A stretch of DNA of 64,000 bases from the IMG/VR virus record IMGVR_UViG_3300009285_003056, one strand, 5' to 3'. The notes under the pieces were generated by a model. It saw only the letters and a program-made list of their open reading frames with translations, was not told where the DNA came from and ran no database searches. Made by a program: the position numbers and the translations under genes. Numbering within the stretch: the stretch's first letter is position 1; each line of letters opens with the position of its first letter. The stretch is from a virus. Positions 10,121 through 64,000 of the stretch are shown here, piece after piece.

Positions 10121-13100
10121 TTATACTGTCTGGACCAGGAAAGCAGGATTGAAGTACACTCTGAGGGTTGACTCAGCAATAGCTACGGCTTGAATCTTCT
10201 CCCCTACTCCAATTGGTCTGGTGTGTGTCATCGTACCTGCTGCAGCGGGAGACAAGAAAAGCACCCCGCCAACAGTCCAACCCCATGTATCCAGACGGAA
10301 GTATCCCTGTCTCAATAGGGTGATTGAAGCATCCGCAATAGCGGCGACAGTTGCTAAGGCTGCTACTGGAGCCTTCACGGATGGGAAGGCATCACCAAAC
10401 GCCTTCCACCATTTCCCATCTGAATTCAAGTACAGGACATCGCCAGCGACTACAATCTCTCCCACTGTTCCAACTGTGGTTGTCCCCTGATATCCAAGAG
10501 TGGCACCCGGAGGGGACAACATGGTGTTGAGACCATTGGAGAGATCATAGACGATGCCATCTTCATCTACACACTTAGGCTTTTTGTCAGTTCCATAGTA
10601 GAAGGTGCCCTTAGCCAGGGTAAGCCCTGGGGCTGCCTGGGGTTCCAGTACCAATGTAGTGGGGTCGATGACACCCGGAACCGTCAACTTCCCTGTCACG
10701 GCGTTGTAGACCAACTGAAGTTGTGCCGGATTACCAAAGGTGACTTCCCCAGTTCCCGAACAATACACGTCGATAAAGGTGGGGAAAGTTCCTGCCTGAA
10801 AAGTAGCACCACCAGCTAGAGTAAAGTCTCCAAGGTCAGTATTGATAACAGGGTTGCTCGCTGTGATGTAGTAGATATCGGCAGCTGGCCCTCTATCATA
10901 TGTCTGGATAGTAATCACACCGGCAGGAGCCGATGCCCAAACCAATCCTCGACCCAAAGCATTAATTGTAATGACAACATCAGCAGCGGCGTCTCCAAGG
11001 GCGACGGGCACTGTCAATAGTCCCATAGGGGTACCAAAGTACAAAGTACCCGCTGCTGTACTGGCAATAGCAGCTACGGTCGCAGCAAGGGAAGCAGGGG
11101 TGGCATTCTGCCCCATTACTAAACGTACTGTGCCCTGTATCTGGCCAGCTTTGAGTGTGGCCGGTGTGGTGATAGCCACACTAGTATCCTCGTCGATTCC
11201 AGGGGCAAGCCAGATTCTACCTGTAGCGTCAGACCCCGCATGCACAGTATCACTGAGATAGCTACCCCCCTGAACGATTACAGGAGCAGCCAGTGGACCC
11301 GCACCGGCCCGGAAAGATGAGTCCCCACCTCGAATGATGGGCCACCCCACATGTCCATAGGACACCTGATTGGTACTCTGTGTCTGGATGCGCAGTCCAT
11401 AGTTATGGAAGAGGCCCCCATCTAGAATTGAAGCCCCCTGGACGATACCAGCCGGAAGAGAACGGGGATTTCCTGCCCCAGGTGTCAATTCAGCCGACCA
11501 AACCAACCAACCCATATTTGCTACTGGCCCTGCAGCCATCAAGTTGGGGTCAAGGTCGATCTCAGGAGTGTCAAAAACCCCCACTTTGATGTTACGCTCG
11601 ATATGCAAATTAGCATTCGTGTCGGCATAAGTTCCACCAGGAGTGGTGGAAACGGGGTGGGTCGACCCAGAGATACGCACCGCACTCTGATCTGCCACAA
11701 TCTCCCTACCAAGCCCTGCGCCTCTCGTAGGGGGTGTCAAGGATGAGAGACCATCATATGCTGCATCTAATCCTGAGTACCCACCTCCAAGTGCATTGGG
11801 GAGAGTGGAAATCATTACCAGATCGTCTATGGCATCCTGGGAGTTGGTTGATGCCAATCGCTGTGCTACAGGCACAGCAGGAAGACCAGCATGCACATCC
11901 CAGGGATCAGTTAGGTCTGGCACGTACCGAATAGACTTGCCTTGTGACTCGTAAGTAGACGTAGTTGGGTTTGCTGTGGGGAGAGTTACAGCTGTATAGA
12001 TGGTGTCCGAAAGCCTGAAAGTGGTGGCACCTGCACAGGCAGCCGTATCGAATGTTATGTTGCCTTCAACTGTGCAATTCCGCAGTGTGGCAGAAAGGGT
12101 CCCCGCTTTTGGCCCCCCATTGAACAACAGTGCGTTAGCTGCTGTCACCACAGATATCTTGGACTTTTCAAACAGGTTTATGGAAGCCAGAGAATGCAAC
12201 CCCACACAAGCAGCGGTCGTAGTGGAGATAGCAGCATCGACCAGATTGAAGGTGTAGTTAGTCGCCAAGGCGAGGTTATTCACTCGCATGGCGCTGGATG
12301 TAGCCCGGACAAAGGATCTGTCCAGTTCTGTGGTCCCTGTCACTCCATTGATCTCTACAGCATAGTGGGCGGCACCCGCTGTAGATGCATCTGAAATCAG
12401 GGTGCCATAGGTTTTGACCGTAATGGCAGCCGTGCCGTCCCCCATGACCAGGACAGAACCGCCCCCTACTGCCTGCTGTGCCAATACAGACTCAAAGAGG
12501 TAGAGAGATCCCGTGAGGGACGGAGCCAGGGCATCAATGGACAGTGTGTCAATGCCAGCAAGATTGGAAGTGAGAGTCACCCCCCGAAGAATGTAGACAT
12601 CCCCGGCTGCTGCACTGAAGAGCGTATGCCCGAGTGCCTGTGCTTGCACAATGACATCGGGAACATCGGTAGGGGTCTGTCCCTGAGTCTTATGCCCCAA
12701 TCCGATCAAGTGCACATGGGGGTGAAGGATCAAATCTTCCGAGTAGACACCTGGCTGGATGTAGATCAGATACGGTTCTGTAGCACTTACAGCGGGCTCC
12801 CCCCGGGCAGCAGCCGCAAGGGCATACGTGATCGCAAGATTGATACTACTGAAGTCCCCAAATCCTTGTGCTTTGACCGTTGCCCCTGTTGCTACCAGAT
12901 CCACAGGATCGGTGCCAGGAACCTCAAAGGTATTGGTCCGATCATCAGGGGTCTGTGTATTGTCCCAAGTAGAGCGGCCCCTATTGGCGTCGACCACTAA
13001 GATACGCCCGCTCGTGCTGACACGTCGAACAAAGAGCCCCAGCTTTTGGAGACTCAGGTTTTCGTCATTCGCCCAACCGGCCGTATCAATATCAGCTGGA

Positions 13101-16079: not shown

Positions 16080-16286
16080 CTGTAAGAGCAGCAAGTTTTT
16101 CCATCTTCGCCACTGACCCTGACAGAAGTACAGAGCTTGACGAGCACTCCGTACATGCTTGCCCTGCTGTTGCCGTACCGGCAATAGCTTCGCAGGATTC
16201 AGTTGAGGTTCTAACGGTTTCCATCCCTCCCTCTTAGGCTAATCCCAGTACTCTGAAACCCAATCTTTCAAGTTTCATCCGGAATT
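16080..16286 (-). ncRNA. omegaRNA scaffold of IsrB (5' guide predicted immediately upstream, about 16287-16306)
   Basis: Read on the minus strand: 5' stem AATTCCGG (16279-16286) / CTGGGATT (16241-16248) followed by AGCCTAAG; a 9-bp stem GTACGGAGT/GCTCTGTAC (16128-16154) whose loop TCGTCA can pair with downstream TGGCGA (16107-16112) as a pseudoknot. This arrangement matches IscB/IsrB omegaRNAs as I recall them. Confidence 0.75.
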
Positions 16287-19200
16287 CTCTGTATCCTCGT
16301 CATAAGTCAGAGAGATATCCCCGGCTGTAAGATACTCCACCGCTGTGGTTCGGATATCCTGCACCCCCGTAGACTCCTCAACCTTATAGGTAACTGCATA
16401 CGTATAGTCCGTGGGGTCCCCACCTGTGGGTAACGAAATCAGGACTCGATTCTTGGTCAACAGGACGCCTTGGGCATAGCGTTCGTTCACATCCGTCATG
16501 TCCGGGAAGTCAATCTGGAGTGTGGCATCATCTGAATACCCCGGGATGACTAGCCCGTCATTTCCAACGATGTAGGCATTTCCACTCTGCGCTTTGAGGG
16601 GCATACCCAGAGAGTTCAACGTGCCCGTGAGTAGATTCAAGGCTGTCTCATCCTGTGTGACCCCCCGGAATTCTGTGATTGCCCCGCCCCCATTACTGGT
16701 AGGAGACGACAGTACGTCTTTGATCAGGTACACATCTACCAACGATGTGCCCCAGGCAGTGATCTTCTCCAGATCTCCGCTCTCGCTGGTATCCAATGTC
16801 TCTGCCAGCACCGTAGTCCCAACTGCCCGAGCTACAGTCGTAAGGGGGACCACTACGTAGGAGACTCCCGTAGTCTTCTTGATGGTTTCGATTACATCCG
16901 AAACTCGGAGGGGCGATCCTAAGCCTTTCTTGGCGAACATGGATGTGATGTTGGTTCTGATAGCCCGATCCACTACAGACGGATCAGAACCCTTCAAGAG
17001 AACCACCGTTGCCCCCACATCTACTAGAGTCTTGATCGCCTGCTTGACCACCACATCGGCAGTCAATCTCCGCTGTGGCTCCAGGTCAGCCTGGACGATA
17101 GACACTAGGGCATTGGATCGGTAAGCAACAGTGAAGTTCTCGTCATGCTCATAGTCGATCAGAAGAGACTGTCCAGAAGTGATTGTGCTCGTCTCCGTCC
17201 GTTGAATGCCGATTGCTGCCACACTGGGGTCACTGGGAACGATGATCCGATAATCAGGGGTGAGTACTCCAGTGGCAACAGGCTGATACTGGACTGTTCG
17301 CCCCACATTCCAAACTTCGATGGTGAGGATATTAGACCCAAAGAAATTCAGGTACTCTACGTAGTCCCCTAGGATGACATGAGTTTCCCCGGTCACAGTG
17401 ATAATCTGCCCGATTCGCCCAGAGGCAGTGGGGGAGTCGACCTGAATGTAATCGTCTGCCATTGAGGAGAGGCCCAAGAGAAGAGGGTTATCTTGTCTGT
17501 AAAGGGCATAGGTATCCGGGTCCACCGTACCCGTAGCTCCTGTTTCCCCAATCAGAGAGACCAGAGCAGTCACGGGCTGCCTGGACATAATGTGTTTGTT
17601 GCTGGTCCGATACCTGTAATCCCCCTGGAGTACATCTGTGAGCGTGACATTAGCAGGATCATTGTAGGCACTAGATAACTGAATGGTATCAAAAGAAGGG
17701 TAAGTGACTCCTGTAAGGCTGAACCACATACCAGACGTGACACTACGGAAACCCAACGGCGGCGTATTGGCTGGGAAATCCAACATCTCGACTAGAGGGT
17801 TCGACGGTGTCAATGTCGGATAGGTGCCCACAACAGGTACGGCTCTGAAGGTCAAATCTTGGGGGTCCCCCACGATCTCAAAATTGACCCCATAGGCGAT
17901 CTCGTAGGTGAATGCAAAGGTGTCTGAAACCGTGGCTGAATTTTCCCCACGTACCCAAATGTCGACCTTGCCCCCGATGTGCCGCCCCAATGTGGAGTCA
18001 TAATCCCTCTTCATCAGGGCATCCCCACTGGGGATTACATTGACACCTGAAACCCCCGCCATATTGACACAGGCTTCCGTGTAACCTTGTCGAGTCCCAC
18101 CATCCAGCCCCGTGAGAGCCCCCTGGCACCGTACAGCCAGCTCCCGATTGGACTCCCTGTTGTACCCGCCATACGTCTTTGCTTCGTTGGTAACGAAAAC
18201 ACCTGTGATACCACGAACACCCGTAATTTGCCCAGCGGGCACATTTCCGCCAGTCCCCACTTCTTCCGCCTGGATGAAAGCCCTGACGGAATATCTACCC
18301 GTGGCAGCATTGTAGAAAGACGCAATGTTGGAGATACTGATCTCGGCGGCAGAAGATGTCCGAAATAGAACAGAGCCACTATAGGCAATGGTACCAATCG
18401 GAATGGGTATACTCCGACTGGGCCGTTTGGTCGTGTAAAATGTGGCCTCACCCTTAGCCAATTTTCCTAGTAGCCTGGACTTCCCGTAATTGGACGCCAA
18501 CTTCTCGAAGATAGAGTCGATGACTGTCTGTACATCGTTCAGGTTGGACATCCTGAATGCCTGTGCTAAGGCAATCTTATAGTTGGACCGATCCGGGGCA
18601 ATCGAGAATCCCGTGAAGTTGGGGTCATCTATAGCCAAGAGCGTGGAGAATGACTGTGCCTTATGGATGAAATCCAGTATGAACCTAACTCGTTCTGCCT
18701 CTGTGGAGAACGGATCCAGGAAAGTATCCCGCAACACCGATCCCGGCTGTGTGGACACCCCAGGGTTCGACCTATAAATGGACACAACCCCATCCTTCAC
18801 GATTTGGGGTCGAGTTACCATGGGGAAGGAACCCACCGAAGTCGTAATCCTAAGAGGATATCCGGGGATCTCCATGGACATCGGGGACTCAACCTCTACT
18901 GCAATCGTAGAGTCATAGTAGACAGCCGTTACAGTGTAGTAGATGGGCTCTGTCTGAGGCGTAGACGCCAACTCTCCTACAGGGATAGCTGGATAAGTAG
19001 ACGTGGTGTCTGCATTCCGATCATGAAAGAAGTAGTAGGTAGACGTATCCTTCACAGAGGAGACAGTTGTATGGATACGTATCTTCGTGACGGTCTCGGG
19101 AATGTTCACCCGCTCGTTGAAATCCATCTCCAAGGTGGTTCCGTTCCGATCCTCTTGCGACCCTTGGATACGAAAGAGCTGTGGGTCTGCAAGTGGAATT

Positions 19201-19790
19201 CCGTTGGTATCTACTGCGACCGTGGCATCAACGTCTAACTCCCCCAACTCGCTCTCATCTTCTCCTTGTACGCTCTCCAGGGTTGTAATTGTATTGACAT
19301 TGATCCGATGGTATCCTGTAGAACCGCCTCCGGTCGCTGTAGCAGCGTAGAAATTGTATCCTGTGACTAGTGTACTGTCGATGCCACTTACACCCACCTT
19401 CACGAGCCCATCCATCTTCTCTACCGTAATCCCTGTGGGGGCCTGGACCACTAGGTTCACATCGTTTGCTTGAACCAATCTTACTGTGACAGTGGCTTCT
19501 CCAGATGTATCCCCTGTCGTGTTGATGGAACGAACTTTGATGGTGTTGTCCCCAGGCAACAATTGCAACCCATCTGGATACTTGGATGGGTTGGGGACTG
19601 TGAAGGAGGCCCCCTCGAAAGTAATCAGATCAGGATCGTCCTCGAAGGCACTCCCAAATGCTGATATTTGCATGTAGATGGTGTCAGCATCTATAGACCC
19701 CGTGAAGAATCGAGTGGAGACGGTGGTGTGGAAAATGAACGTCTCCCGATAGACTCCATCAGGACCAAGGAATTTGGGTGTCGTCGCCAT
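16275..19790 (-). CDS. Baseplate J-like wedge protein (T4 gp6 / P2 gpJ family) with N-terminal Ig/FN3-like extension, 1171 aa
   Basis: AKGEATFYTT...IPIGTIAY...VRAFIQAEEVGTGGNVPAGQIT...VTNEAKTYGGYNRESNRELAVRCQGALTGLDGGTRQGY is the Baseplate_J signature. The gene follows the gp25-like gene. Confidence 0.85.
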   Translation of the reverse strand: MATTPKFLGPDGVYRETFIFHTTVSTRFFTGSIDADTIYMQISAFGSAFEDDPDLITFEGASFTVPNPSKYPDGLQLLPGDNTIKVRSINTTGDTSGEATVTVRLVQANDVNLVVQAPTGITVEKMDGLVKVGVSGIDSTLVTGYNFYAATATGGGSTGYHRINVNTITTLESVQGEDESELGELDVDATVAVDTNGIPLADPQLFRIQGSQEDRNGTTLEMDFNERVNIPETVTKIRIHTTVSSVKDTSTYYFFHDRNADTTSTYPAIPVGELASTPQTEPIYYTVTAVYYDSTIAVEVESPMSMEIPGYPLRITTSVGSFPMVTRPQIVKDGVVSIYRSNPGVSTQPGSVLRDTFLDPFSTEAERVRFILDFIHKAQSFSTLLAIDDPNFTGFSIAPDRSNYKIALAQAFRMSNLNDVQTVIDSIFEKLASNYGKSRLLGKLAKGEATFYTTKRPSRSIPIPIGTIAYSGSVLFRTSSAAEISISNIASFYNAATGRYSVRAFIQAEEVGTGGNVPAGQITGVRGITGVFVTNEAKTYGGYNRESNRELAVRCQGALTGLDGGTRQGYTEACVNMAGVSGVNVIPSGDALMKRDYDSTLGRHIGGKVDIWVRGENSATVSDTFAFTYEIAYGVNFEIVGDPQDLTFRAVPVVGTYPTLTPSNPLVEMLDFPANTPPLGFRSVTSGMWFSLTGVTYPSFDTIQLSSAYNDPANVTLTDVLQGDYRYRTSNKHIMSRQPVTALVSLIGETGATGTVDPDTYALYRQDNPLLLGLSSMADDYIQVDSPTASGRIGQIITVTGETHVILGDYVEYLNFFGSNILTIEVWNVGRTVQYQPVATGVLTPDYRIIVPSDPSVAAIGIQRTETSTITSGQSLLIDYEHDENFTVAYRSNALVSIVQADLEPQRRLTADVVVKQAIKTLVDVGATVVLLKGSDPSVVDRAIRTNITSMFAKKGLGSPLRVSDVIETIKKTTGVSYVVVPLTTVARAVGTTVLAETLDTSESGDLEKITAWGTSLVDVYLIKDVLSSPTSNGGGAITEFRGVTQDETALNLLTGTLNSLGMPLKAQSGNAYIVGNDGLVIPGYSDDATLQIDFPDMTDVNERYAQGVLLTKNRVLISLPTGGDPTDYTYAVTYKVEESTGVQDIRTTAVEYLTAGDISLTYDEDTENSG

Positions 19791-19793
19791 ACA

Positions 19794-20864
19794 TTACCCC
19801 AGGGAAAGGCCATTGGTGCCAGGGAGTGCTGTCACTCCAGGAACCGTGTAGACGATGGAGATTGAAACAGGATCGGACGATGCGTTCCGAAGAATCACGT
19901 CCACCACATACATAGTGGGGTTGTTCTTATCCGAGGTGGTTCGAACCGTAACGACTTCGTACAGTCGCTCCTTGAACGTCACTTGCTGATACTTGGCCTG
20001 TTCTGCCTGTATCTTCTGGAAGGTCTTCAGTGCTCGACGAACCTCCTCAGAAAGAGATGCCGCCACATTCCCGACCGCCTTGGACCCTATCTTGTTCTGG
20101 ATGGACGTGCCATAGAAAGTGTGATACGGATTTGAACCTTGTGTGGTTAGAAGCAGCTTCTGTGCTGCCTGGACCAACAGGTTCTCATTCGTGATCATTG
20201 CCATATTGCCGTGTTGATCGAATCTATAGTCATTTTCGATCCCGTACCCACGGCACCGCAAACACTTGTACCTGTCCACTGTATAGGAAACCGTCAGAGT
20301 CGGATTCGATTGTAGAGGTTCTACAAATTTGAGACTCTTGGTGAGCGAACCAGTAGGCTTAGCCAATGTCCAGCCCGGATATACCTTGTGCCCTCGTGCC
20401 CCAAGTTGTCCCGTAAACCCAAGAGCCGATGCTGCCAACCCCGAAACCTGAATGACAGAGGTTGACCCAGTGCTATCGGAGTCTGTCAACTTCAAACATC
20501 CGTTAGCATCTTCTACTGCGATTGATGAAGCTTGGGCCTTCAAGGCAACAATCACATCCTGGACACTCAGACGCTCCGTAGTGCTATACGGCAATGTTAT
20601 AGATAGCGTTTCCTTGGATGAAATCACAGAGAATGTCTGCTCGTTACGGATGATCCTGAAGGGGCCAGAAAAAGCCCCGATAAGGGAGGCATTCGTACTA
20701 AGGCCCTGACTAGGGATTGTCACGCTATCGTTTGCTCTGAGCTGGATAAAGCCCCCTGCCACAGGCTGTTTGGTGGGTAGAGACATCCGATCAGAGCCGA
20801 GGGTAATAACCTCCTCAACCGTAAGATGTGGGCAACTGAACGCTAATCGGACATCTTGGGACAC
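19794..20864 (-). CDS. Baseplate wedge / sheath-initiator protein, gp25/GPW-like C-terminal domain with N-terminal extension (356 aa, GTG start)
   Basis: The C-terminus ENDYRFDQHG...NENLLVQAAQKLLLTTQGSNPYHTFYGTSIQNKIG...LSEEVRRAL...VDVILRN is gp25-like, and the gene lies directly upstream of baseplate J. Confidence 0.75.
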   Translation of the reverse strand: MSQDVRLAFSCPHLTVEEVITLGSDRMSLPTKQPVAGGFIQLRANDSVTIPSQGLSTNASLIGAFSGPFRIIRNEQTFSVISSKETLSITLPYSTTERLSVQDVIVALKAQASSIAVEDANGCLKLTDSDSTGSTSVIQVSGLAASALGFTGQLGARGHKVYPGWTLAKPTGSLTKSLKFVEPLQSNPTLTVSYTVDRYKCLRCRGYGIENDYRFDQHGNMAMITNENLLVQAAQKLLLTTQGSNPYHTFYGTSIQNKIGSKAVGNVAASLSEEVRRALKTFQKIQAEQAKYQQVTFKERLYEVVTVRTTSDKNNPTMYVVDVILRNASSDPVSISIVYTVPGVTALPGTNGLSLG

Positions 20865-54285: not shown

Positions 54286-57200
54286 TTACAGCGAAGAGCG
54301 AACTGAGAAATTCGCAAGGATGTATAAGAGGGGGAAGATAGGGGCGTATGCAGCAACCAGGTCTGCCTCAGTCGGGTTGTCCGCAGCGGTCGTAGCTTTG
54401 ATACCCGTATAGGCTGCTACGATCTGTGCTGTCACGAAATCCCTGAACATCTGTGCAACCCTGCCCTCAATCTGTCCCAGTACCACCGGGAGATATTTGA
54501 TCCCGATGAACTGTTCCAGTACCGACCGAGACTGCATCTGGACCTCATCTGCAATCTGAATGATCGTCGGGAGTTTGGTCAGGATGTTGGTTGGATCAGT
54601 AGTCAGACCGTGCCGTGTCCGCAGGAACGGGGGCCGATCTTCCATAACCGTCACGCCCTGAACTGCTACCTGATTGGCCTCTACAGCATCCAGGATACGA
54701 CCCAGGGATCCGAATCCTACCAACAGTGACCCTGTCCATGGAGTAGCCACGTCAATGTTGGGACTGCACCGATTGCCCGCCAGAGCCGCAGCAATATAGG
54801 TTCCATCCACTAGATACTCTTTGGTCGTCCCAAGAGCATCCATAAGCGGGATGGTAACAATATCCGGGTACACGATGCGCATACGGGTGCTGGAAAGCGT
54901 CTGTGCCAGATTCCCCACATCCGTAGGAGTCTTGCCAGCCGACACACCGATAAGTCCAGTACGTTCGTGCTTGTACCGCACACTGGACTGGATGTCCACA
55001 TGCCGATCCAGGTACTGATACAGTTCAGTGGAGTCACCCCGGAGCAGAGTCATAATATTCGGGGCGATGAACCCCTGAAGTGGTGTTTCTAGATCGTCCA
55101 ATGCATCCCTATATGATGTGAGGGATCCATAGTTAGAGTCCGTGGCCTTGGGAACCTGCTTGATTGCCACTAGGACCGCTCCATTCAGAATAGACATATA
55201 GGCGGCTAGGGAAACAGGATTGTCCGGCCCTACAGTCCCGTAGGCTGCCTCAATGGCGGCTAACTTCGTATACAGTGCCATCGAGAAAGCCTGCTTGGTG
55301 TAGACATAGGAGACGTAGTAGAGATCCCCAATGGTGGGTTCGCTTCCACCCCGCTCAAAGGTCTCTACCAGTGCCGTATCGCTGACACCCACATTGTAAG
55401 TGTTGGCAACATAGGCTTCCACACCGGAAATAGCCCGGATTGGAGCATTGGCGTTCGTAGTGAACGTGGAGTTCACGTTGATGCGGAATGTGGCATTCAC
55501 ACCCGTGGGGTAAGCAATGTTACCCGGACGGGCAAGGATCGTGAAAGTAAGTCCCGTAACTTCATCTACATAGGTCTGACCGATCACCCCATCCTGAGCC
55601 AGCCAAGATAGGGTGGTCTTCAAAACAGATGTATCTGTAGATCCGGAACCATTGGGGTTGCTGGACCGGACAAAGAAACCGTTGATGCCTGATTCCCCGT
55701 AGGCTGAGTCAAGGGCATCGATCCCCAGACCCGTGCCATGCCGTAAAGCATCGCCCGTGGTAGCGGTATTGAAGATCAAGGAGGATGAACTTCCCGCTGT
55801 ATCGCTCTGGATGAACAGATACGTGTTGTTCAACGCATCCAGGGCAACACCCGCAACACCTTCTGCTACGAAATGATCCGCCGCAGCACCATAGTTGGTA
55901 CCACTGCTGTAATTGAACAACGTGTTAGCCATACTTGCTGTATCCACATTGGACATAAGAGCAGCAGCAATCTCAGATGCCTGTACAGGCGTTCTGATCG
56001 CTGTAGTTCCCGCCGTAAATCCCAATACTGAGTTAGCCGCTCCCGAGCCGATCACTACTCTGCTCAACTCATCGTCCCGAACTGATGTGAGACGGAGGCC
56101 CACACCTTCACGTCGAACGATTTGCGCCGCCTGTACTACTCCAATGGCCCCAAACGGTGCTCCAGGTAGATTAGAAAGAGCCAGTTCGATCTGACCGGTG
56201 ACAGTAGCGGCATCCGCAAAGGCAGTGTTGTTCGCTGCAGAAGATGACCCCAATGCGGTTACAGTACCAGCAGCAGATCCTGTGAAAGTGACTGTCACAG
56301 GAACACCATCCAGAGTGAAATCAAATGCCCTGTTGTCAGGGACAGCCCCTGTACCATCGTAGAATGTGACCTGATACTCGTCACGAGCCGCACCAACGCC
56401 ACCTGTGTACTGACCACCAGACATACCTGGAGTACCAAACACAGAGGCAGGCTTTGCTGTAGCAGCATTTGACGACTTGACAGACGTTCCGGCTGTCAAC
56501 TCCAACAGCTCATTACCTGTAGCAGCGTCCACCTGGATCTTGCTTTGCTCAATGGCATTGAAAGCCGCCATACGAGCCATGGTGGACCAGGCATACTCCC
56601 CACCACCAGCCACGATCCTATTACGAAGCACGATACGATCATGCTCCAAAGGTGACGTGGCAATTGTGAAACGTCTTGCCACACCAGAATCCAGAATCTT
56701 GCACTGATGGGTTCCAGCTGCGTCGGCGTCTATACCAGCAATCAGGCAGAAATCGGTATTTCCGACAGCCTGTTCAATGAAGCTGAAAGCGCCTCCAAGG
56801 AGCCCATCCACTGTTGCAGCACGGAACGTAAATACAAGGTGCCCATCCGAATCCGCCGCACAATAGACCCAAGGTGCTACGTGGGTTGCTACTGTATTGA
56901 ATGTTACACCCAAGTTCAACCGAACCTGGATATGAGCTGCTAAGGCAGCAGCACTAGCATAGGTACCAGCCTGAATAATGAATGATTCTGAGGTAGGCGC
57001 AGTTACAGCCCCCACATAACCAATCGTAATTGTGTCGTACCTATTGTTTGCAGCTGCTTCCACCGTGAACGGACTCAAGAATGCAGTCTTCGTCTTGTAT
57101 TGGGGTCTGGTGTCCAGATTGAACAGGTAATAAGCACTACCTAACGGGGCAAGACCAAAGTTCGGTGTCACTGTGGCGATCTTGGTGACAGAGTCATACG

Positions 57201-59574
57201 TCACGATCTCAACTTCTTCACCAGCAGCCGGACCAGCCGTCATAATCAACTTCCAACCAACATAGTAGTTGGGGATGTTGCTTGCCGCTGCAGCCAACGT
57301 CACGGTACCCACCACTGCACCAAGCTGGAGGGTACCCGTAATACCATGCACCGCTTCATTGATTGCTGCCACAAAGGTTCCCACCGTAGCGGATGCACCA
57401 GTATCCGCCAAGGCCCGAACTTCAACCCCATCGATGTTGAGGTTGACTTCGTTGTTTGTGGTATCCAGCGTCCACGTCAACCCACCCGTATCGGCATCAT
57501 ACGTAACGGGTTCACCCAGAATGCTACCCGTGAATCCTGTGACACCCACAGCGGCCACACCAATAGGATCGACCAGACTCGTTCCAAGAGCCGAACCAAT
57601 CGGGGGGTTGGCGTTGCCATTCATCGAGATACGGAGATGATCCGAGTCGGATGAAATGGTGTAGTAGGGGCCAGCAGACGGGGCAGTAAATTTAGCAGGA
57701 GAGGCAGGACGGGCAGCAAACTGCACCGTCACAATCTCATTGACCTGTGCTCCCGAATTCCACAGGATATCCGGGTTGGCCTCACCAGACGGGAAATTGA
57801 TTGTGATCCCAGTCAAGGATGAACCCTTACTCCCACTGTCAAAGGTCGGGTTGTAAATGATGGCCCCGCCCTGATCTGCTACTGTGTAGGTACCCACACC
57901 GCTCACGCCAGGAATGGCGCAACTGCATGTGTACTCATTGTCCGTCAGGGTATTGTGGTAATAGGTCGCAAATACCTTCCCGCCTGCAGGGATCGGTTCT
58001 GCCAGAGTAATTGATGATGTCGCTGAGTCCACATTCACAATAGTAAGACCCCGACCCGTTACGAGGCCCCCATTGTCGATGAACCTCTGGTAAGCATCGT
58101 CTACATCATAGCCCCAGAAGGCAATGATCGTATCGGGACGATTCGACGGAAGATCAATCCTCCCATTTGTCACTGTCTGGAAGAGTGACGCACTTCCAAT
58201 GGGGGTATCACGACCGTTACCGACCGTGGGCTGGTAAGAGAGTGTCCATATGGTGTTGCTGGTCCGGGTGCATTCCAGCATGAACACTCTGTTATCCACC
58301 AGAGATGTAGTCACCTGAGACGACCCAAAGTAATCCTTGCCTGTGGTGTGCACTCCTGAGGACACCAAAGAAGCCGTGCCCCAGACGATCGTGTCGTTCT
58401 GGAGGATGAAATCCGCCCCATCAACATAATCGTTGCGATCGGGGGTAATGCCGCACCGAGTAACCGAAGTCACTCCAATGTTGGCAAGGTAATCAAACGT
58501 ATCAACCCAGCTGTTGAAGTAGTACTGGATAGTAACCGTTGACGATGCGGCAGGGGCAACTGCCAGAGTCACAGCCCGTGTAGCGCCATCTACAGAGATC
58601 GGGATTACCTGGACCCCATCCACCTTCACGGTGACATCTGCAGTATCCGTAGTAGTGATACCGCCATTGGAACCATCCACAATCGGTCCCTGGAAGGTAT
58701 AGAATGTCTTGTTCCGAGCAGTAGCCTGATTGGTTACAAACCCAAGCAGGGCATTTGCTGACCCTGACCCAATCTTGATGTACTGATCAGCAGTCAGAAG
58801 AACGGCATCCTGCCCGTAGTTATTGATGTAGACCGTAGCAGTCAAAGAGCCAATAGCGGCATTGTTGACTGCGTTAGCAATCTGCTGAGCTGTTTTGGCC
58901 CCCGTGGTGAGTGTAATAGACGAGGCTGTCTGTGAACCCGTGACTGTCAGGTTTACGTCATCCACATAGACGGACAGGGTGCTATTGTTGGCAGTTACCA
59001 CGAATCCAGCAGTGGTTGTAGCTACTCCCACACCGCCCCAAATCTGTGCAGACTCTGCTGTCACCTGATCTGAGACAGTATCCGTAATCTGTGTATCCGT
59101 TCGGTCGAAGTAATACGTGCAGCGAACAATCTGCCCCACTCTTGCAGCCTGAGCACATTCCACAATACCTGTAGAACCCGTGACAGCCAGGACTACAATG
59201 GGTTGACCATCGTAGGTTACCGACACAGCCGACCGATCTGTCGTAGTCGTTCCAGTCCCATCCCCATTCACAACAGGATAGTTACGAACCTGAAATTTCG
59301 TCACTGCCCCATCAAAGGCCCCCAACGTTATTACACCCGTCTGGGAAACGGACAGAACCGCACGTCCGGTTTCGTCTTCTTGGACTACCTGCTGATCTAT
59401 CGTGGAAGATGATCCACGGACAACCGCAAGGTTGGTCTGAAAGAGCGTCTCAGAGCCTTCCCCAAGATACACGGGTATCTTCAGGGCTTCAATGGCCCCA
59501 GCTAGAGGATTCTCGAAACTCGTTTGGGTGTAAACGCCCGGAACGACGTAGGATTTCGTGAAGAAGGAAGACAT
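54286..59574 (-). CDS. Contractile tail sheath protein, greatly enlarged (~1762 aa)
   Basis: GGAGG RBS before MSSFFTKSYVVPGVYTQTSFE, a typical sheath N-terminus. The C-terminal sheath domain reads ERTGLIGV...RMRIVYP...YIAAALAG...ANQVAVQGVTVME...RHGLTT...IADEV...FIGIK...AYAPIFPLLYILANF. Confidence 0.9.
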   Translation of the reverse strand: MSSFFTKSYVVPGVYTQTSFENPLAGAIEALKIPVYLGEGSETLFQTNLAVVRGSSSTIDQQVVQEDETGRAVLSVSQTGVITLGAFDGAVTKFQVRNYPVVNGDGTGTTTTDRSAVSVTYDGQPIVVLAVTGSTGIVECAQAARVGQIVRCTYYFDRTDTQITDTVSDQVTAESAQIWGGVGVATTTAGFVVTANNSTLSVYVDDVNLTVTGSQTASSITLTTGAKTAQQIANAVNNAAIGSLTATVYINNYGQDAVLLTADQYIKIGSGSANALLGFVTNQATARNKTFYTFQGPIVDGSNGGITTTDTADVTVKVDGVQVIPISVDGATRAVTLAVAPAASSTVTIQYYFNSWVDTFDYLANIGVTSVTRCGITPDRNDYVDGADFILQNDTIVWGTASLVSSGVHTTGKDYFGSSQVTTSLVDNRVFMLECTRTSNTIWTLSYQPTVGNGRDTPIGSASLFQTVTNGRIDLPSNRPDTIIAFWGYDVDDAYQRFIDNGGLVTGRGLTIVNVDSATSSITLAEPIPAGGKVFATYYHNTLTDNEYTCSCAIPGVSGVGTYTVADQGGAIIYNPTFDSGSKGSSLTGITINFPSGEANPDILWNSGAQVNEIVTVQFAARPASPAKFTAPSAGPYYTISSDSDHLRISMNGNANPPIGSALGTSLVDPIGVAAVGVTGFTGSILGEPVTYDADTGGLTWTLDTTNNEVNLNIDGVEVRALADTGASATVGTFVAAINEAVHGITGTLQLGAVVGTVTLAAAASNIPNYYVGWKLIMTAGPAAGEEVEIVTYDSVTKIATVTPNFGLAPLGSAYYLFNLDTRPQYKTKTAFLSPFTVEAAANNRYDTITIGYVGAVTAPTSESFIIQAGTYASAAALAAHIQVRLNLGVTFNTVATHVAPWVYCAADSDGHLVFTFRAATVDGLLGGAFSFIEQAVGNTDFCLIAGIDADAAGTHQCKILDSGVARRFTIATSPLEHDRIVLRNRIVAGGGEYAWSTMARMAAFNAIEQSKIQVDAATGNELLELTAGTSVKSSNAATAKPASVFGTPGMSGGQYTGGVGAARDEYQVTFYDGTGAVPDNRAFDFTLDGVPVTVTFTGSAAGTVTALGSSSAANNTAFADAATVTGQIELALSNLPGAPFGAIGVVQAAQIVRREGVGLRLTSVRDDELSRVVIGSGAANSVLGFTAGTTAIRTPVQASEIAAALMSNVDTASMANTLFNYSSGTNYGAAADHFVAEGVAGVALDALNNTYLFIQSDTAGSSSSLIFNTATTGDALRHGTGLGIDALDSAYGESGINGFFVRSSNPNGSGSTDTSVLKTTLSWLAQDGVIGQTYVDEVTGLTFTILARPGNIAYPTGVNATFRINVNSTFTTNANAPIRAISGVEAYVANTYNVGVSDTALVETFERGGSEPTIGDLYYVSYVYTKQAFSMALYTKLAAIEAAYGTVGPDNPVSLAAYMSILNGAVLVAIKQVPKATDSNYGSLTSYRDALDDLETPLQGFIAPNIMTLLRGDSTELYQYLDRHVDIQSSVRYKHERTGLIGVSAGKTPTDVGNLAQTLSSTRMRIVYPDIVTIPLMDALGTTKEYLVDGTYIAAALAGNRCSPNIDVATPWTGSLLVGFGSLGRILDAVEANQVAVQGVTVMEDRPPFLRTRHGLTTDPTNILTKLPTIIQIADEVQMQSRSVLEQFIGIKYLPVVLGQIEGRVAQMFRDFVTAQIVAAYTGIKATTAADNPTEADLVAAYAPIFPLLYILANFSVRSSL

Positions 59575-59614
59575 GCGAACCTCCAAAGCCCATGAGGATC
59601 AGGACACACACTTT

Positions 59615-59719: not shown

Positions 59720-60169
59720 TTACTTCTTGGCAACCTTAGCTGCTTCAAGTGCCTTCCTGCGGGAATACATGACAAGATTATTGATGGTTCGTCCTGTTAG
59801 AGCCGCTTTTTTCTGCCATGGCTCCATCACTTTATAGTCACCATCAGGCATCTTGGACAAGTCCGTCTTATCCGTACCTGGATTGGATGCTAATATCTCC
59901 CGCTTGTATGCGTCCCTCTGATCAATTGCAGCCCACTTCTCCACAGAGTCCTGTGCAATGACCCTATCCACCTCGGCGTCAATCCCACTGAAACCTGTGT
60001 TCTGCGGAGCGATTCCTTGAGTGGGTGCCTGTAGACTGAAATTCAACCCTTCGGGTAATGCCATCTTGGCTCCTCTGCCACAGGCAATGCACTCTACTGT
60101 CTCAGTCCCCATAGCAGTCAATTCCTCGAACTGCACTCCGCATTCACATTGGTACGTATAGATTGGCAT
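59720..60169 (-). CDS. FmdB-family-like zinc-ribbon protein (149 aa)
   Basis: The N-terminus MPIYTYQCECGVQFEEL...IECIACG is the FmdB/CxxC pattern. TAATG overlap with the upstream gene. Confidence 0.7.
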   Translation of the reverse strand: MPIYTYQCECGVQFEELTAMGTETVECIACGRGAKMALPEGLNFSLQAPTQGIAPQNTGFSGIDAEVDRVIAQDSVEKWAAIDQRDAYKREILASNPGTDKTDLSKMPDGDYKVMEPWQKKAALTGRTINNLVMYSRRKALEAAKVAKK

Positions 60170-61353
60170 TAGCGTATCCTCTCGTAAGTTTTGGAGCGAT
60201 CCCTGAAATATGGGTCCTGAATCGATTGCAAACCCATGTTCTCCAACATGACAATATTGTTAGTCGCTGATACCACCTCATCATCCGTGAGCCCAGCTAT
60301 CCACCGTGCCTGCTCGCCCGTGAGCGCCGCAGTCCTTCTTAATGTATAGGGAAGGGGAATGTGGACGGCCCACTCAGTCTCCAGAGTCAGACTGAAGTTG
60401 GCATTGAAATAGTAGTCCTCCCCATTTTCGTCCCAAATCTCCTCGGATTCCCCACCCATCGAGATATCCCCCATCTCGATGCCCTCCGAGGACAACTTGG
60501 GGCGCAAGCTGCTTTGAAGGTAAATGATGGTCTGATCATATATCTCTGCTTCTGCATGGACATCCCGAGCACAGACCTCACACTCCATATTGATCTGCCA
60601 ACGTCCACCATACTCTAGGGCGGCTGGTTGCCGAATACCTTGGACAACCACTGCCATCCGATCCCCCTTTTCATTCCTATTTCCAAAGGCAAGGACTACT
60701 CCTGGAATCGCCCGATTGTTGGCATAGTTCTCGACGAAGTTGTGCGGCCCAGTTGATGTCCCCGCATACCTGTAGTCGGAGATCAAGTACCGGGAACCTG
60801 TCAATGCGTTCGTAAGAGTGATTACCCCTGTGGCGTTGTCCACTGTGTAGTTGATATCCTCTTGAAGCTCGTAGCCTGCCGGACCCTCGTAAAGCCTCAA
60901 GGAACCCGCCAGAGGTAGGTTCTGGAGTTGGTATTCAGTATCAGTCACCTTTGTGGGTAATTCATCCCGAACATCTAACATGGGGTGTACGTAGAACACA
61001 TTGGTATCCGTTAGTTCGACATAGTAGATACCAGCTGGAGACGGGAAGTTGCCATTGTTGTTCTGGATGGCTACAGCGTCTTCCCGCACCCACTCAATTG
61101 CTGTACCTGGAAAGTTCTGTACCCCCATGAGGTAGACATACGAGACAACCACACCCTTGAAGTTGTCAGCGGACATGTCTACCCGGGTTCCACCACTGAC
61201 TTTGACTATGATCCCGTAAGAGGGTCTCTCTCGGAAAGAGTACTTGCCCTGAATATGGTCGACGATATCCCTGTACTTAGGATGAGAAACCCAATACCTA
61301 CGCAATTCCGACACGACGCGATTCTTCATTGCGCCCGTTAAAGCGAAGTACAT
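60169..61353 (-). CDS. Probable tail terminator / neck protein with an inserted beta domain (394 aa)
   Basis: Located upstream of the sheath gene. The C-terminal ...GGRWQINMECEVCARD...IYDQTIIYL...ISMGGESEEIWDE...YYFNANFSLTLETEW resembles tail-terminator folds. Confidence 0.45.
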   Translation of the reverse strand: MYFALTGAMKNRVVSELRRYWVSHPKYRDIVDHIQGKYSFRERPSYGIIVKVSGGTRVDMSADNFKGVVVSYVYLMGVQNFPGTAIEWVREDAVAIQNNNGNFPSPAGIYYVELTDTNVFYVHPMLDVRDELPTKVTDTEYQLQNLPLAGSLRLYEGPAGYELQEDINYTVDNATGVITLTNALTGSRYLISDYRYAGTSTGPHNFVENYANNRAIPGVVLAFGNRNEKGDRMAVVVQGIRQPAALEYGGRWQINMECEVCARDVHAEAEIYDQTIIYLQSSLRPKLSSEGIEMGDISMGGESEEIWDENGEDYYFNANFSLTLETEWAVHIPLPYTLRRTAALTGEQARWIAGLTDDEVVSATNNIVMLENMGLQSIQDPYFRDRSKTYERIR

Positions 61354-61356
61354 TTT

Positions 61357-62376
61357 TTACTCCTCTTGCAGAGCCTGAATCAGCAGTCCATAGGCTACCG
61401 CATTGAGTGGATCCTTAGCCATCCGTATCTCTGAGATAGGGATAGGAAATCGTTTCCGTTTAGCCTCGAATACCTGAGTGAAGAAGTCTAGGAATCCGCC
61501 CGCTAAAGCCGTGCCACCTGAAACCACCATCGGGATAGGACTAGGAAGGGCAAATCTCGACCGTATCTTGTCAAACTCACTGGCAATGTGGTCAAGAGCG
61601 TATTCGACCATCGCCCTATAGTAAAAGACGATAGCTTCCTGCTCCCTGCCTGCAGGCTTGTTGAGATCAACACCAGCCTCTTTGATGGCACAGATACGAG
61701 CTTGGGTAGAGCCCACGGAGTTAGCAGCGCCGGAATCAATCCAATCGCCACTCCTGGCCACACTGAAGCTCAGACCTTCCATAGTATTCACACTGAGGGC
61801 ACAATTTGTCATCCCAGCCCCGAATGAGATACTGAGCCCACTGAAATTCTCCTTAGCCGTCTCACTAAATATGATCGCCATAGCCTCGTTTGCAGGGTGG
61901 GCAGTGTACCCACATTCTTGGATGATTCGTCGGAATACTTCCCGATGGTAAACGATGTCTTTCCCAGGTTGATCAATTGGGGGGGCCGGGACGGAATAGT
62001 AACAGGTTTCCCCCGGAACTAATGGTTCGCCCAAGACATTCTTGACCAACAGACCAAGAACTTCAAGGGAATCAGTTTCAGATGGAGAGATCAAACCCCC
62101 ACTCAGAGGGCGTCTGGCAACCCGACCAAAAACGTTAGCCATCTCCAGAGCTGCATCCCCTAGGACAAGAATTTCATCACCCCTCTCTACGAACTGTGTG
62201 TTCCCCATCTTGAGCATCTTCTTTGCCGTGATAGGGAAGTCAAGGAACACATCTCGTATCCTCTTGGTGACAATCCCGTCTGAACTCTTACGGGCCGATA
62301 AAACATTCATAGTGCCCAGATCCGTACCACAACCCGGCTGCAAAACCAACCCGTTCATCTTGTCCTTGTTAGGCAT
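61357..62376 (-). CDS. Actin-fold ATPase (MreB/FtsA/ParM-like superfamily), 339 aa
   Basis: All five actin motifs are present in order: phosphate-1 GTDLGTMNV, connect-1 ANEAMAIIF, phosphate-2 SISFGAGMTN, adenosine VVSGGTALAGGF, connect-2 DPLNAVAYGL. Confidence 0.85.
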   Translation of the reverse strand: MPNKDKMNGLVLQPGCGTDLGTMNVLSARKSSDGIVTKRIRDVFLDFPITAKKMLKMGNTQFVERGDEILVLGDAALEMANVFGRVARRPLSGGLISPSETDSLEVLGLLVKNVLGEPLVPGETCYYSVPAPPIDQPGKDIVYHREVFRRIIQECGYTAHPANEAMAIIFSETAKENFSGLSISFGAGMTNCALSVNTMEGLSFSVARSGDWIDSGAANSVGSTQARICAIKEAGVDLNKPAGREQEAIVFYYRAMVEYALDHIASEFDKIRSRFALPSPIPMVVSGGTALAGGFLDFFTQVFEAKRKRFPIPISEIRMAKDPLNAVAYGLLIQALQEE

Positions 62377-62989
62377 CTTTCTTCCCCTTCTTTCCTTTCT
62401 TTTTCCCTAACGCCACCAATGCGGCATCCACATCTGTAGTACCAGATGTGCCCTCCAGGATGCTTATCTCAGTCCCTGTCCCCGTCACCATGTTGGTCGG
62501 GATGAACACGGGCTCTGATGCAGGTTGAGTAACACTCAATGGGGCAGATACAGTAGGAAGGCTGTTCACCATTATTTGACGAACATCCACTTTAGCTGCC
62601 ACTGCCGCCGCAATCATATCCACATTGATGGCACCGTCTACCATTCCCCTGAGAGCAGTCACCAATTCTGTCGTAACAGCATCGAGTTTAACCCGTAACT
62701 GACCGTCCACAATCCTTTCTACATCCTCTCGGGATAACATTGGTGTCTCCTGCCTTGGGGACGGTTTCTTTCGGATATAATTGGGGGGCGGATACGGATT
62801 ATCAGCAGTCATGGCTTTGCACCTCTCTTCCCACCGAACATCTACTGTACCATTGTCCTGGAGTTTCCATAGCCACCTAGACAGTCTTGCTTGTACTTCT
62901 GACACGTAAGTCACAGTGCCTGCTGACAATCGCAAGTTCATATCGGGGATGACTGTGGTCCTCAAGCATGTGATCTTAGCCTCTCTCAC
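62369..62989 (-). CDS. Hypothetical protein (206 aa) with a Lys-rich C-terminus
   Basis: ORF overlaps the start of the actin-like gene by 8 nt and begins 2 nt after the upstream stop. Confidence 0.65.
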   Translation of the reverse strand: MREAKITCLRTTVIPDMNLRLSAGTVTYVSEVQARLSRWLWKLQDNGTVDVRWEERCKAMTADNPYPPPNYIRKKPSPRQETPMLSREDVERIVDGQLRVKLDAVTTELVTALRGMVDGAINVDMIAAAVAAKVDVRQIMVNSLPTVSAPLSVTQPASEPVFIPTNMVTGTGTEISILEGTSGTTDVDAALVALGKKKGKKGKKDA

Positions 62990-62991
62990 TT

Positions 62992-63567
62992 TCAGTCACC
63001 CGACTTCCGACTCAGCCTACGAGTGATCTCAGCCGCAATGATCTCAGCCATCCTCTCTCTAGCCTTCCGAACACCTCTCTCAATGAACGTATGCTTGGCT
63101 ATCCCAGGATGTACCCAAAGCTTACCTGTAGATAAAGGAGCCATCCTGAATATGACTTCCCCGTTGCCTTGCAACAAGGGAATCGGCTTCCCGGTCAACT
63201 TAGGGTTGCTTTGAGTATGCTTCCTCATGGAAAAGGCGTCAACACCTTCGGTAATCCCCTTTATCCAAGGCCATGTGGAGACTACTTCAATGGTGGACTC
63301 ACCCCGGATCCTGAAGGAAAACGAATCGAAGAAACCGGGCCTGATAGTGTCACCGTGAGAATCAGGCAACCCTTCAGGCTGGCCCTTGTGATGCGGAGAC
63401 TTACCTTGCTTAGCAAAGTCCTTCTTAGCTTCCGCTACAACAGCTTTGACAGCTGCCAACCCAAGTCGACGCAAGATGTTGGTATCCAAAACAAAGGCAC
63501 CCCTACTGTTCAGTAACTTACTGAAGGGGCCTTTCAGTACTCCACGTACTCTAGTCTTGGTAACCAT
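62992..63567 (-). CDS. Neck / tail-completion protein, possibly HK97 gp10-like (191 aa)
   Basis: A basic protein with LRRLGLAAVKAVVAEAK...FFDSFSFRIRGESTIEVVS...VHPGIAKHTFIERGVRKARERMAEII, a pattern typical of gp10-like virion morphogenesis proteins; located after the head-closure-like gene. Confidence 0.45.
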   Translation of the reverse strand: MVTKTRVRGVLKGPFSKLLNSRGAFVLDTNILRRLGLAAVKAVVAEAKKDFAKQGKSPHHKGQPEGLPDSHGDTIRPGFFDSFSFRIRGESTIEVVSTWPWIKGITEGVDAFSMRKHTQSNPKLTGKPIPLLQGNGEVIFRMAPLSTGKLWVHPGIAKHTFIERGVRKARERMAEIIAAEITRRLSRKSGD

Positions 63568-63573
63568 TCGGCC

Positions 63574-64000
63574 TTACTCGTTCTGATTCTCAAACGTTGG
63601 GGTACGGCCCCTCTGTTCTCGTTCGTCCGGGTATCCAGGTTTGTCCGTACCCTCCGGAGTAGCAATGGGCGAACCAATCTGTCTTGGCTCGTAGGTAGTC
63701 CCAATGACAGGGAATAGCACTGTCGTATCCCGTTCCTGTCGAGTCTGAGGCCACGGCAGGGACGCAGTACCTGTGATAGGCACCTTGTATCGGATGTCCC
63801 CCTCATCCAAGTATGCTATGTTGAAATGCTGTTGAAGGACATTCCCCCTATTGGTGGGTCTCCGAACGGGGCCAATGCTATATCGCTCATTAGTCTGCTT
63901 GACCAAAAAGTCTCGCTGAGTGACTAAAGGACTGGGACCCGTCCAAACTTCGTAGGTATGCTCCATACGCCTGCCCCTTTCACTCTGGGACATACGCCTT
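63574..64000 (-). CDS. C-terminal part of a probable head-closure / neck protein (5' end outside the window)
   Basis: The frame stays open to the right edge. EVWTGPSPLVTQRDFLVKQTNERYSIGPV...LQQHFNIAYL resembles head-closure beta-barrel C-termini. Confidence 0.45.
   Translation of the reverse strand, partial: RRMSQSERGRRMEHTYEVWTGPSPLVTQRDFLVKQTNERYSIGPVRRPTNRGNVLQQHFNIAYLDEGDIRYKVPITGTASLPWPQTRQERDTTVLFPVIGTTYEPRQIGSPIATPEGTDKPGYPDEREQRGRTPTFENQNE

Follow-up and report, generated by a model that had tools for sequence, protein, structure and literature searches.

A Volactin-family actin and a phage-only candidate adaptor held in the neck/tail-terminator gene run of huge phages

The stretch of viral DNA analysed here (IMG/VR record IMGVR_UViG_3300009285_003056; 64,000 nucleotides, hereafter the window) encodes, at 61357-62376 on the minus strand, a full-length actin-fold protein of the Volactin family (Pfam PF25216) whose nucleotide-site residues are intact. 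The gene is embedded among genes for neck and tail-terminator proteins, and directly upstream of it lies g206, which encodes a fast-evolving, phage-only protein that is a candidate adaptor. With moderate confidence, we propose that this phage volactin and g206, as its cognate adaptor, are made along with the neck and terminator proteins, and that the filament formed by the actin would organise the neck-end parts of the virion in an accessory capacity. Both the volactin family and, as a kind, phage cytoskeletal proteins with adaptors were already known; the novelty lies in their combination, a volactin-type actin with a constant place in the neck/tail-terminator operon of huge phages and a phage-only partner, which we found described in no paper. 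Phage actins are mentioned neither in a 2021 comparative overview (PMC7824862) nor in a 2026 jumbo-phage review (PMC13282480), the volactin paper does not mention phages (PMC10869688), and targeted literature searches on phage actins returned AlpC alone.

The open reading frame (ORF) is complete, from the ATG at 62376 to the TAA at 61357, and its 339-residue product carries no extra domain and no substrate-binding domain. It matches the Pfam Volactin profile at 229.2 bits (cut-off 35; E-value 1.2e-67) over positions 4-321 of 321, and a Pfam scan admitting E-values up to 0.1 reported Volactin alone, with no match to MreB/Mbl (PF06723). An AlphaFold model built from 27 homologues (predicted local distance difference test, pLDDT, 85; predicted template modelling score, pTM, 0.82) adopts the actin fold, in agreement with the preliminary description of the gene as encoding an intact actin-fold protein. 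The structure closest to the model is Haloferax volcanii volactin (VolA, D4GU28), with a template modelling (TM) score of 0.88, a root-mean-square deviation (rmsd) of 2.0 Å and 35% identity over 330 residues. Next in superposition come MamK, MreB, Mbl and salactin (TM 0.60-0.69, 16-21% identity), and MreB, MamK and FtsA are all far from the model (TM about 0.65, 18-20% identity). Among solved structures in the PDB, the best fold matches are MamK, MreB and BeeR, the MreB entries giving TM scores of 0.59-0.66 at 17-22% identity. Similarly, a profile of the phage clade searched against the PDB reaches only filament-forming actins, namely MamK (E-value 1e-8), BeeR (1.4e-7), FtsA and MreB. Hsp70 is absent both from the top 50 PDB fold matches and from this profile search, which also retrieved no sugar kinase; ParM likewise does not appear among the leading matches, whether by fold or by profile. 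A single-sequence PDB search with the actin gave no match, PHROGs held none for the actin or any of six neighbours, and nothing in the viral structure library comes close to it (best TM 0.58-0.61).

All five ASKHA motifs are present in the protein, viz., phosphate-1 (G17-x-D19-x-G21-T22), the catalytic glutamate (E164 in NEAMA), phosphate-2 (S184-F-G-A-G-M-T-N191), the adenosine motif (S286-G-G-T) and connect-2 (D-P-L-N-A-V-A-x-G). The nucleotide-site residues present are D19, G21, T22, E164, S184, G186, G188, N191, G287 and G288, of which D19, E164 and G287-G288 are near-invariant across the volactin family. The usual aspartate of phosphate-2 is replaced by serine in 130 of the 141 volactin-family sequences, cellular members included, and is thus a family-wide trait and not a sign of decay. 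The H. volcanii protein forms dynamic polymers in vivo (PMC10869688), so that the family-wide serine is compatible with filament dynamics.

The family is large. At E-values of 0.001 or less we recovered 1,136 volactin-family clusters at 90% identity, the top 120 of them 64-74% identical to the query actin, and 1,053 representatives at 50% clustering. The family occurs on at least 457 IMG/VR contigs, many of them 200-600 kb long; relatives are encoded on contigs as long as 618 kb and also by two curated genomes of uncultured huge phages, LR745208 (485 kb) and LR756511 (595 kb). In a tree of 141 representatives, the actin of the window falls in a 46-row group comprising both plain and insert-bearing forms (Shimodaira-Hasegawa-like approximate likelihood ratio test support 99), this phage clade being a separate, well-supported group of the tree. 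A recent capture of host MreB or FtsA, which the preliminary description had set against its own proposal, is rejected by identity (18-20% versus 35% to volactin), by fold (with a TM of 0.88 to volactin) and by this large, deep and distinct phage clade.

Minus-strand genes run unbroken across the entire window, and the actin gene is one of this series. Read 5' to 3', the local order is g191, g206, actin, g394 and a Zn-ribbon gene, with junctions taken from the sequence: g191 (62992-63567) and g206 (62369-62989, GTG start) are separated by 2 nucleotides, g206 overlaps the actin gene by 8 nucleotides (ATGCCTAA), a gap of 3 nucleotides leads to g394 (60169-61353), and g394 overlaps the Zn-ribbon gene (59720-60169) by 1 nucleotide (TAATG). 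Shine-Dalgarno-like purine-rich stretches lie inside the preceding genes at the junctions around the actin, and the frequency of promoter-like and terminator-like sites in 59-64 kb does not exceed that of shuffled sequence. The tight packing and overlap with virion genes that had drawn attention to the locus is thus upheld; of the neighbours, the terminator is borne out by its fold and the neck protein by sequence features. The model of g394 (pLDDT 80) is of the tail terminator (tube/sheath terminator) fold: in VIA-align comparisons it matches chain M of the phage 812 neck with a Z-score of 14.4 (rmsd 2.9, 152 residues aligned), followed by T5 p142 (13.6), lambda gpU (11.9), the Mu terminator (11.5) and T4 gp15 (9.5), with many further neck and terminator chains heading the list. 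The 191-residue product of g191, two genes upstream of the actin, has no Pfam or PHROG match and is probably an HK97-gp10-like/Phage_tail_S-like neck, head-tail joining or tail-completion protein, an assignment drawn from Atlas language-model features alone (score 0.95 to the HK97-gp10_like and Phage_tail_S clusters), which are a lead and not a fold test. Elsewhere the window encodes a Baseplate_J protein (16275-19790), a gp25-like sheath initiator (19794-20864) and several giant proteins, marking it as a structural block of a contractile-tailed virus.

To survey this arrangement, every ORF of about 90 loci was searched with iterative profiles of the window proteins, using HMMER alignments, and occurrences were counted over the loci with enough flank (70 upstream, 80 downstream). 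Upstream of the actin, g206 is found in 68 of the 70 loci, g191 in 62 and g139 in 59; downstream, the terminator is found in 69 of the 80, and the Zn-ribbon gene and the putative sheath gene in 68 each. The position of the actin, whose conservation the preliminary description had left to be checked, is accordingly the same in over 80 related loci, the most distant of them at 44% identity in the actin. The order persists at 44-47% identity (L017, L091 and L092), where the g206 family member still shows the g206 motifs. No terminator lies within 10 kb in a subgroup at about 60% identity, which nevertheless holds g191, g206 and actin together, making this triad the most persistent unit. Conservation, measured as median identity to the window's copy over the 26 loci that carry all eight families, is highest for the actin in every one of the 26 (median 66%), followed by the C-terminal region of the sheath (56%), g139 (55%), the terminator (50%), the Zn-ribbon protein (36%), g191 (33%) and g206, which is lowest at 28%.

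The junctions on the two sides of the actin behave differently across these loci. That with g206 is nearly always an overlap, most commonly of 4 nucleotides, unlike the actin-terminator interval, which ranges from -1 to more than 2,000 nucleotides and up to 8 kb by way of extra inserted genes (e.g., L004:11460-12986); this spot appears to tolerate insertions. In the subgroup at about 60% identity, the genes that follow the actin encode paralogues of 131-237 residues with a common N-terminal helix (M-R-R-S-A-S-E-I-I-R-N-L-E-x-R-I-A-R-L-E-K-Q) and differing sequences thereafter (L005:11069-11782, L006:11056-11451, L007:11041-11466 and 11676-12092, L009:11058-11498, L010:11038-11475). Two loci, L007 and L008 (both at 11478-11597), carry a partial second copy of the last 40 residues of the actin about 500 nucleotides downstream of the intact gene; it is 62% identical to residues 299-338 of the window's protein and may be the remnant of a duplication or insertion event.

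A complementary view comes from loci fetched by their terminator rather than by their actin. The best 80 of 334 IMG/VR contigs were kept and counted only where at least 4.5 kb lay upstream (n=55). The actin is present in 47 of these 55, every one of which also has g206, and absent from eight. In four of the eight g191 abuts the terminator, and the other four retain a g206 remnant of 124-167 residues, which matches the profile from position 1 to 87-134 of 200 and lacks the C-terminal motif yet ends in basic residues. The motif is carried by 65 of the 85 non-redundant g206 proteins that have an actin downstream and by none of the six that do not (Fisher p 3.5e-4, indicative only, as related sequences are treated as independent), and most of the 20 misses among the 85 are looser versions of it. 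On the terminator tree the actin-less loci require five changes, at least four of them forced by well-supported branches. Five actin-less records that were tested are free of volactin throughout, and one of them, of 536 kb, is rated 100% complete, whereas two complete relatives with the actin hold one copy each and have no Pfam Tubulin match. The loss of the C-terminal half of g206 along with the actin ties that half to the actin; the N-terminal domain, which survives, is tied to something else in the module, most simply the adjoining neck-end proteins; and since the remnants keep the basic tail while losing the helix motif, it is not the tail that is linked to the actin. An actin under strong constraint where present, in a tail module that works without it, is more readily explained by an accessory cytoskeletal role than by that of a structural part or of an obligate chaperone. 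The suggestion in the preliminary description of an ATP-dependent assembly chaperone is thus unlikely to hold if an essential chaperone is meant, and the same is true of a structural part.

For all its divergence, g206 has a fixed build: an N-terminal domain of about 60-90 residues, a variable charged linker, a central helix, an F-I-P motif (72 of 77 proteins) and a C-terminal part ending in an amphipathic helix and a basic tail, with a median net charge of +4 over the last 12 residues. In the window's 206-residue protein, the C-terminal motif occupies the last 20 residues (62372-62431), where the helix D-A-x-x-A-L-K/R-x-L-R-K is followed by a lysine-rich tail. Across the loci, the motif lies within the last 30 residues of 59 of 77 g206 proteins, as against seven of 5497 other ORFs. 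A word-indexed homologue search with g206 found only itself, there was no usable Atlas match, the g206 profile returned nothing from the PDB, and no DNA-binding domain was recognisable by Pfam, Atlas or PDB profile. The predicted complex of actin and g206 scores 0.47, with the best control at 0.00, and lends weak support to binding; its runs share at least 43% of contacts, with a partner pLDDT of at least 58. The mark set for this score is passed by 58 of 80 solved complexes and two of 110 mismatched pairs, only seven of those 80 and both passing mismatches lying at 0.60 or under, counts that hold only roughly as our own alignments were used. The preliminary description had named both the 206-residue protein with its lysine-rich tail and the Zn-ribbon protein as candidate adaptors: the former is a good candidate, whereas none of 70 Zn-ribbon proteins has a g206-type motif, so that nothing marks them as adaptors, and an adaptor role of the g206 kind is rejected for them.

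Taken together, we envisage that the actin most likely binds ATP and forms filaments in the infected cell, probably late in infection, as its place in the run of virion genes indicates. g206 probably binds the filament through its C-terminal half, comprising the central helix, F-I-P and the amphipathic helix with its basic tail, and its N-terminal domain probably binds part of the neck end of the virion. Heads and tails of this size barely diffuse in the bacterial cytoplasm, and the filament would gather, position or order them. The actin system would thus be an accessory that improves efficiency, like the PhuZ tubulin, and not an essential building block. More tentatively, and with appreciably less confidence than in the pairing of volactin and adaptor itself, we suggest that huge phages may use an actin cytoskeleton of their own for virion morphogenesis, in which volactin filaments coupled by g206 to the neck end would actively bring together or align particles too large to diffuse.

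Several observations weigh against this proposal. The volactin of the divergent phage LR756511 (32% identity) has no recognisable tail genes around it, and that of one relative at 38% identity is surrounded by small non-structural genes. Repeated loss of the actin means that the tail can be built without it, leaving gene position as the only link to morphogenesis. Cellular volactins serve other contexts, such as gas-vesicle clusters and fusions to the ParB helix-turn-helix (HTH) domain. The actin-g206 complex prediction is weak and came without a reported interface, the statistic for the motif is indicative only, and DNA or membrane, instead of a virion part, could be what the basic tail of g206 binds. 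ATP-dependent, dynamic polymerisation of the phage actin is itself extrapolated from relatives only. Finally, no cultured phage carries this actin, the phage collection having yielded only two uncultured records.

Among other explanations, the one that calls for most attention, though we consider it unlikely, is a pair for DNA positioning or partition like AlpAC or ParMRC. Phage DNA would then be the ligand of g206, contacted by either the basic tail or the N-terminal domain, the filament would serve to move or anchor genomes during replication or packaging, and the place in the virion operon would be incidental. AlpC is likewise co-transcribed with an adaptor, encoded upstream of it, that contacts both DNA and the actin (PMC4446434), some cellular volactins (P0160 and P0182) are fused to a ParB HTH domain, the tail of g206 is strongly basic, and the actin is dispensable, as partition-type accessories often are. 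However, 59.5-64 kb contains no iterated centromere-like repeats, only short two-copy repeats expected by chance, with a site elsewhere in the genome being possible; and a parC-like site would find no room upstream of g206, as the junctions leave no intergenic DNA. Over 80 loci have the pair in this same position between neck and terminator genes and not near replication genes, g206 has no recognisable DNA-binding domain, and actin-less phages keep the basic tail while losing the helix motif. The same retention of the tail bears on a takeover of host shape or envelope, whereby the filament, like MreB or volactin in cells, would act on cell geometry or the envelope, e.g., to enlarge or stiffen the cell for very large virions, and the C-terminal helix and basic tail of g206 would anchor it to the membrane. 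Amphipathic helices followed by basic residues are the usual form of bacterial membrane-targeting sequences, as in MinD and FtsA. Volactin affects the rod-to-disk transition of H. volcanii (PMC10869688), and dispensability of the gene would also suit such a role; yet the helix motif is lost with the actin as the tail stays, which fits an actin-binding motif at least as well as an anchor, and the strict linkage is to neck and terminator genes instead of lysis or host-takeover genes, making this a rather improbable account.

Two further explanations take the place of the gene more literally. Its position directly between a gp10-like protein and the tail terminator, with translational coupling, could point to a non-polymerising ASKHA ATPase that assists completion of the neck or tail as an ATP-dependent assembly chaperone, g206 then serving as its co-chaperone or substrate adaptor, and the replacement of aspartate by serine in phosphate-2 could alter ATP turnover. 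We hold this to be distinctly unlikely, given that the nearest proteins by fold and sequence are filament formers (volactin, MamK, MreB and BeeR), that no Hsp70 is among the top fold or profile matches, that a substrate-binding domain is lacking, and that at least four losses and a complete genome without the gene speak against a needed chaperone; further, the serine is shared with cellular members of the H. volcanii type, and volactin polymerises (PMC10869688). That the actin is itself a structural component of the virion, e.g., of the neck, collar or an internal body, is least plausible and in our estimate very improbable: its gene has virion genes for neighbours and its conservation is very high, but the terminator, Zn-ribbon and gp10-like genes are shared by close relatives that do without it, no actin-fold protein occurs in the solved phage necks and tails among the matches to its neighbours, and the viral structure library offers only the low-scoring matches given above.

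The preferred reading, a phage volactin with g206 as its adaptor, has partial parallels in several known systems. With H. volcanii volactin it shares the family phosphate-2 signature (S-[FC]-G-x-G-M-x-N), similar size and the lack of extra domains; it differs in being encoded by a huge phage within a run of virion genes and in its coupling to the phage-only g206, and the rod-to-disk role does not transfer to it. AlpC and AlpA of the Corynebacterium glutamicum prophage CGP3 offer the case of an accessory phage-encoded actin with a co-transcribed adaptor gene just upstream whose product binds the actin; those are, however, early genes that serve replication, and AlpA recognises a site within the DNA of its own promoter (PMC4446434), whereas the phage volactin and g206 lie between neck and terminator genes, with neither repeats nor free intergenic DNA. 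No AlpC-type protein was retrieved by sequence or fold searches, any relationship being at the superfamily level only. In the plasmid R1 system, ParR docks its C-terminal helix on the ParM actin. ParM/ParR/parC is thus likewise an actin with a small adaptor, and this docking is the mode that we propose for g206; on the other hand, no centromere was found, g206 lacks a recognisable DNA-binding fold, the context is one of virion genes, and the actin is closer to volactin and MamK. MamK, which leads the solved structures in the profile search and ranks with the best by fold, positions large intracellular objects via adaptors, but is only 18-20% identical (TM 0.57-0.68), cellular and tied to an organelle. 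A known analogue is the PhuZ tubulin of the Chimalliviridae jumbo phages, which is non-essential, carries capsids to their docking site and has been lost in some relatives (PMC13282480). It is a phage-encoded cytomotive filament of very large phages, as the volactin would be; it differs in having a tubulin fold and in working with the phage nucleus.

The remaining genes of the neighbourhood, all on the minus strand, merit brief mention. Within g394, the inserted beta domain (residues of about 126-197) by itself matches domains of tailspike and tail proteins (Z of about 7 over 59-72 residues). The Zn-ribbon protein (149 residues) has an N-terminal CxxC...CxxC arrangement and a basic C-terminus, and matches Pfam Zn_ribbon_8 just under the cut-off (E-value 1.1e-7). 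Downstream of it, a 1766-residue protein (54286-59586), whose family is conserved downstream of the actin, is labelled a putative giant tail sheath by position; this label and that of a 280-residue tube protein are unconfirmed, as Pfam (with whole proteins and their ends) and single-sequence and profile PDB searches were empty. At the other end of the window, g139 (63574-64000) is the C-terminal part of a larger protein, its frame being open to the window end; its full-length relatives have 453-464 residues (L014, 462; L006, 453; L029, 464), so that the start lies beyond the window. A profile of the first 330 residues of the putative sheath also matches the full-length g139 relatives (L014:17433-18821 and L029:7253-8647), and the two proteins may share a domain. 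In L029, genes for an 822-residue VWA-domain protein and a radical-SAM protein (1935-4403 and 5388-6869), the latter matching the PHROG 'DNA repair photolyase' (E-value 7e-195), lie upstream of the neck/tail run.

Across its tree, the volactin family displays a range of architectures and contexts. An insert of 130-450 residues splits 18 of the 141 tree rows (P0121, P0126 and 16 more) at profile positions of about 182-207, in at least two sites, at or just after the phosphate-2 motif; the two inserts that were scanned are intein splicing domains with an HNH or LAGLIDADG endonuclease. Another group of 42 rows is rich in N-terminal extensions, including the ParB-HTH fusions. In cellular genomes, members of this group lie as tandem paralogues beside an HflX-type GTPase (L020:2206-5196 and L095:6994-9038), the second paralogue of L020 having an N-terminal ParB-HTH domain, and one member (P0159) is fused to a Wzz/GNVR/ParA-like tyrosine-kinase module. 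A further member, P0161 (40% identical and in a sister part of the tree), is encoded inside a cellular gas-vesicle cluster (L019:8001-9044, GCA_049642725.1) with GvpA, GvpF/L, a GvpN-like AAA protein, GvpG, GvpK, GvpO, GvpH and a CDC48-like ATPase, a context that suggests an actin dedicated to gas-vesicle placement or assembly. We know of no description of a volactin in such a cluster. The gas-vesicle member and the ParB-type fusions together suggest a general role for volactins in placing large intracellular objects.

Known phage cytoskeletons comprise the PhuZ tubulin and a few actin-like proteins for DNA replication or partition, whereas here a large family of actins resides in a block of virion genes. 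If huge phages do use it for virion morphogenesis, this would be the first actin-driven assembly step in any prokaryotic virus and the actin counterpart of the PhuZ tubulin. The relatives that have lost the actin along with the C-terminal half of its partner constitute natural knock-outs, and the proposal can be tested with two small soluble proteins. Such work would show whether very large prokaryotic viruses need active transport to assemble. The present findings already widen the biology of volactin beyond that of an archaeal cell-shape protein.

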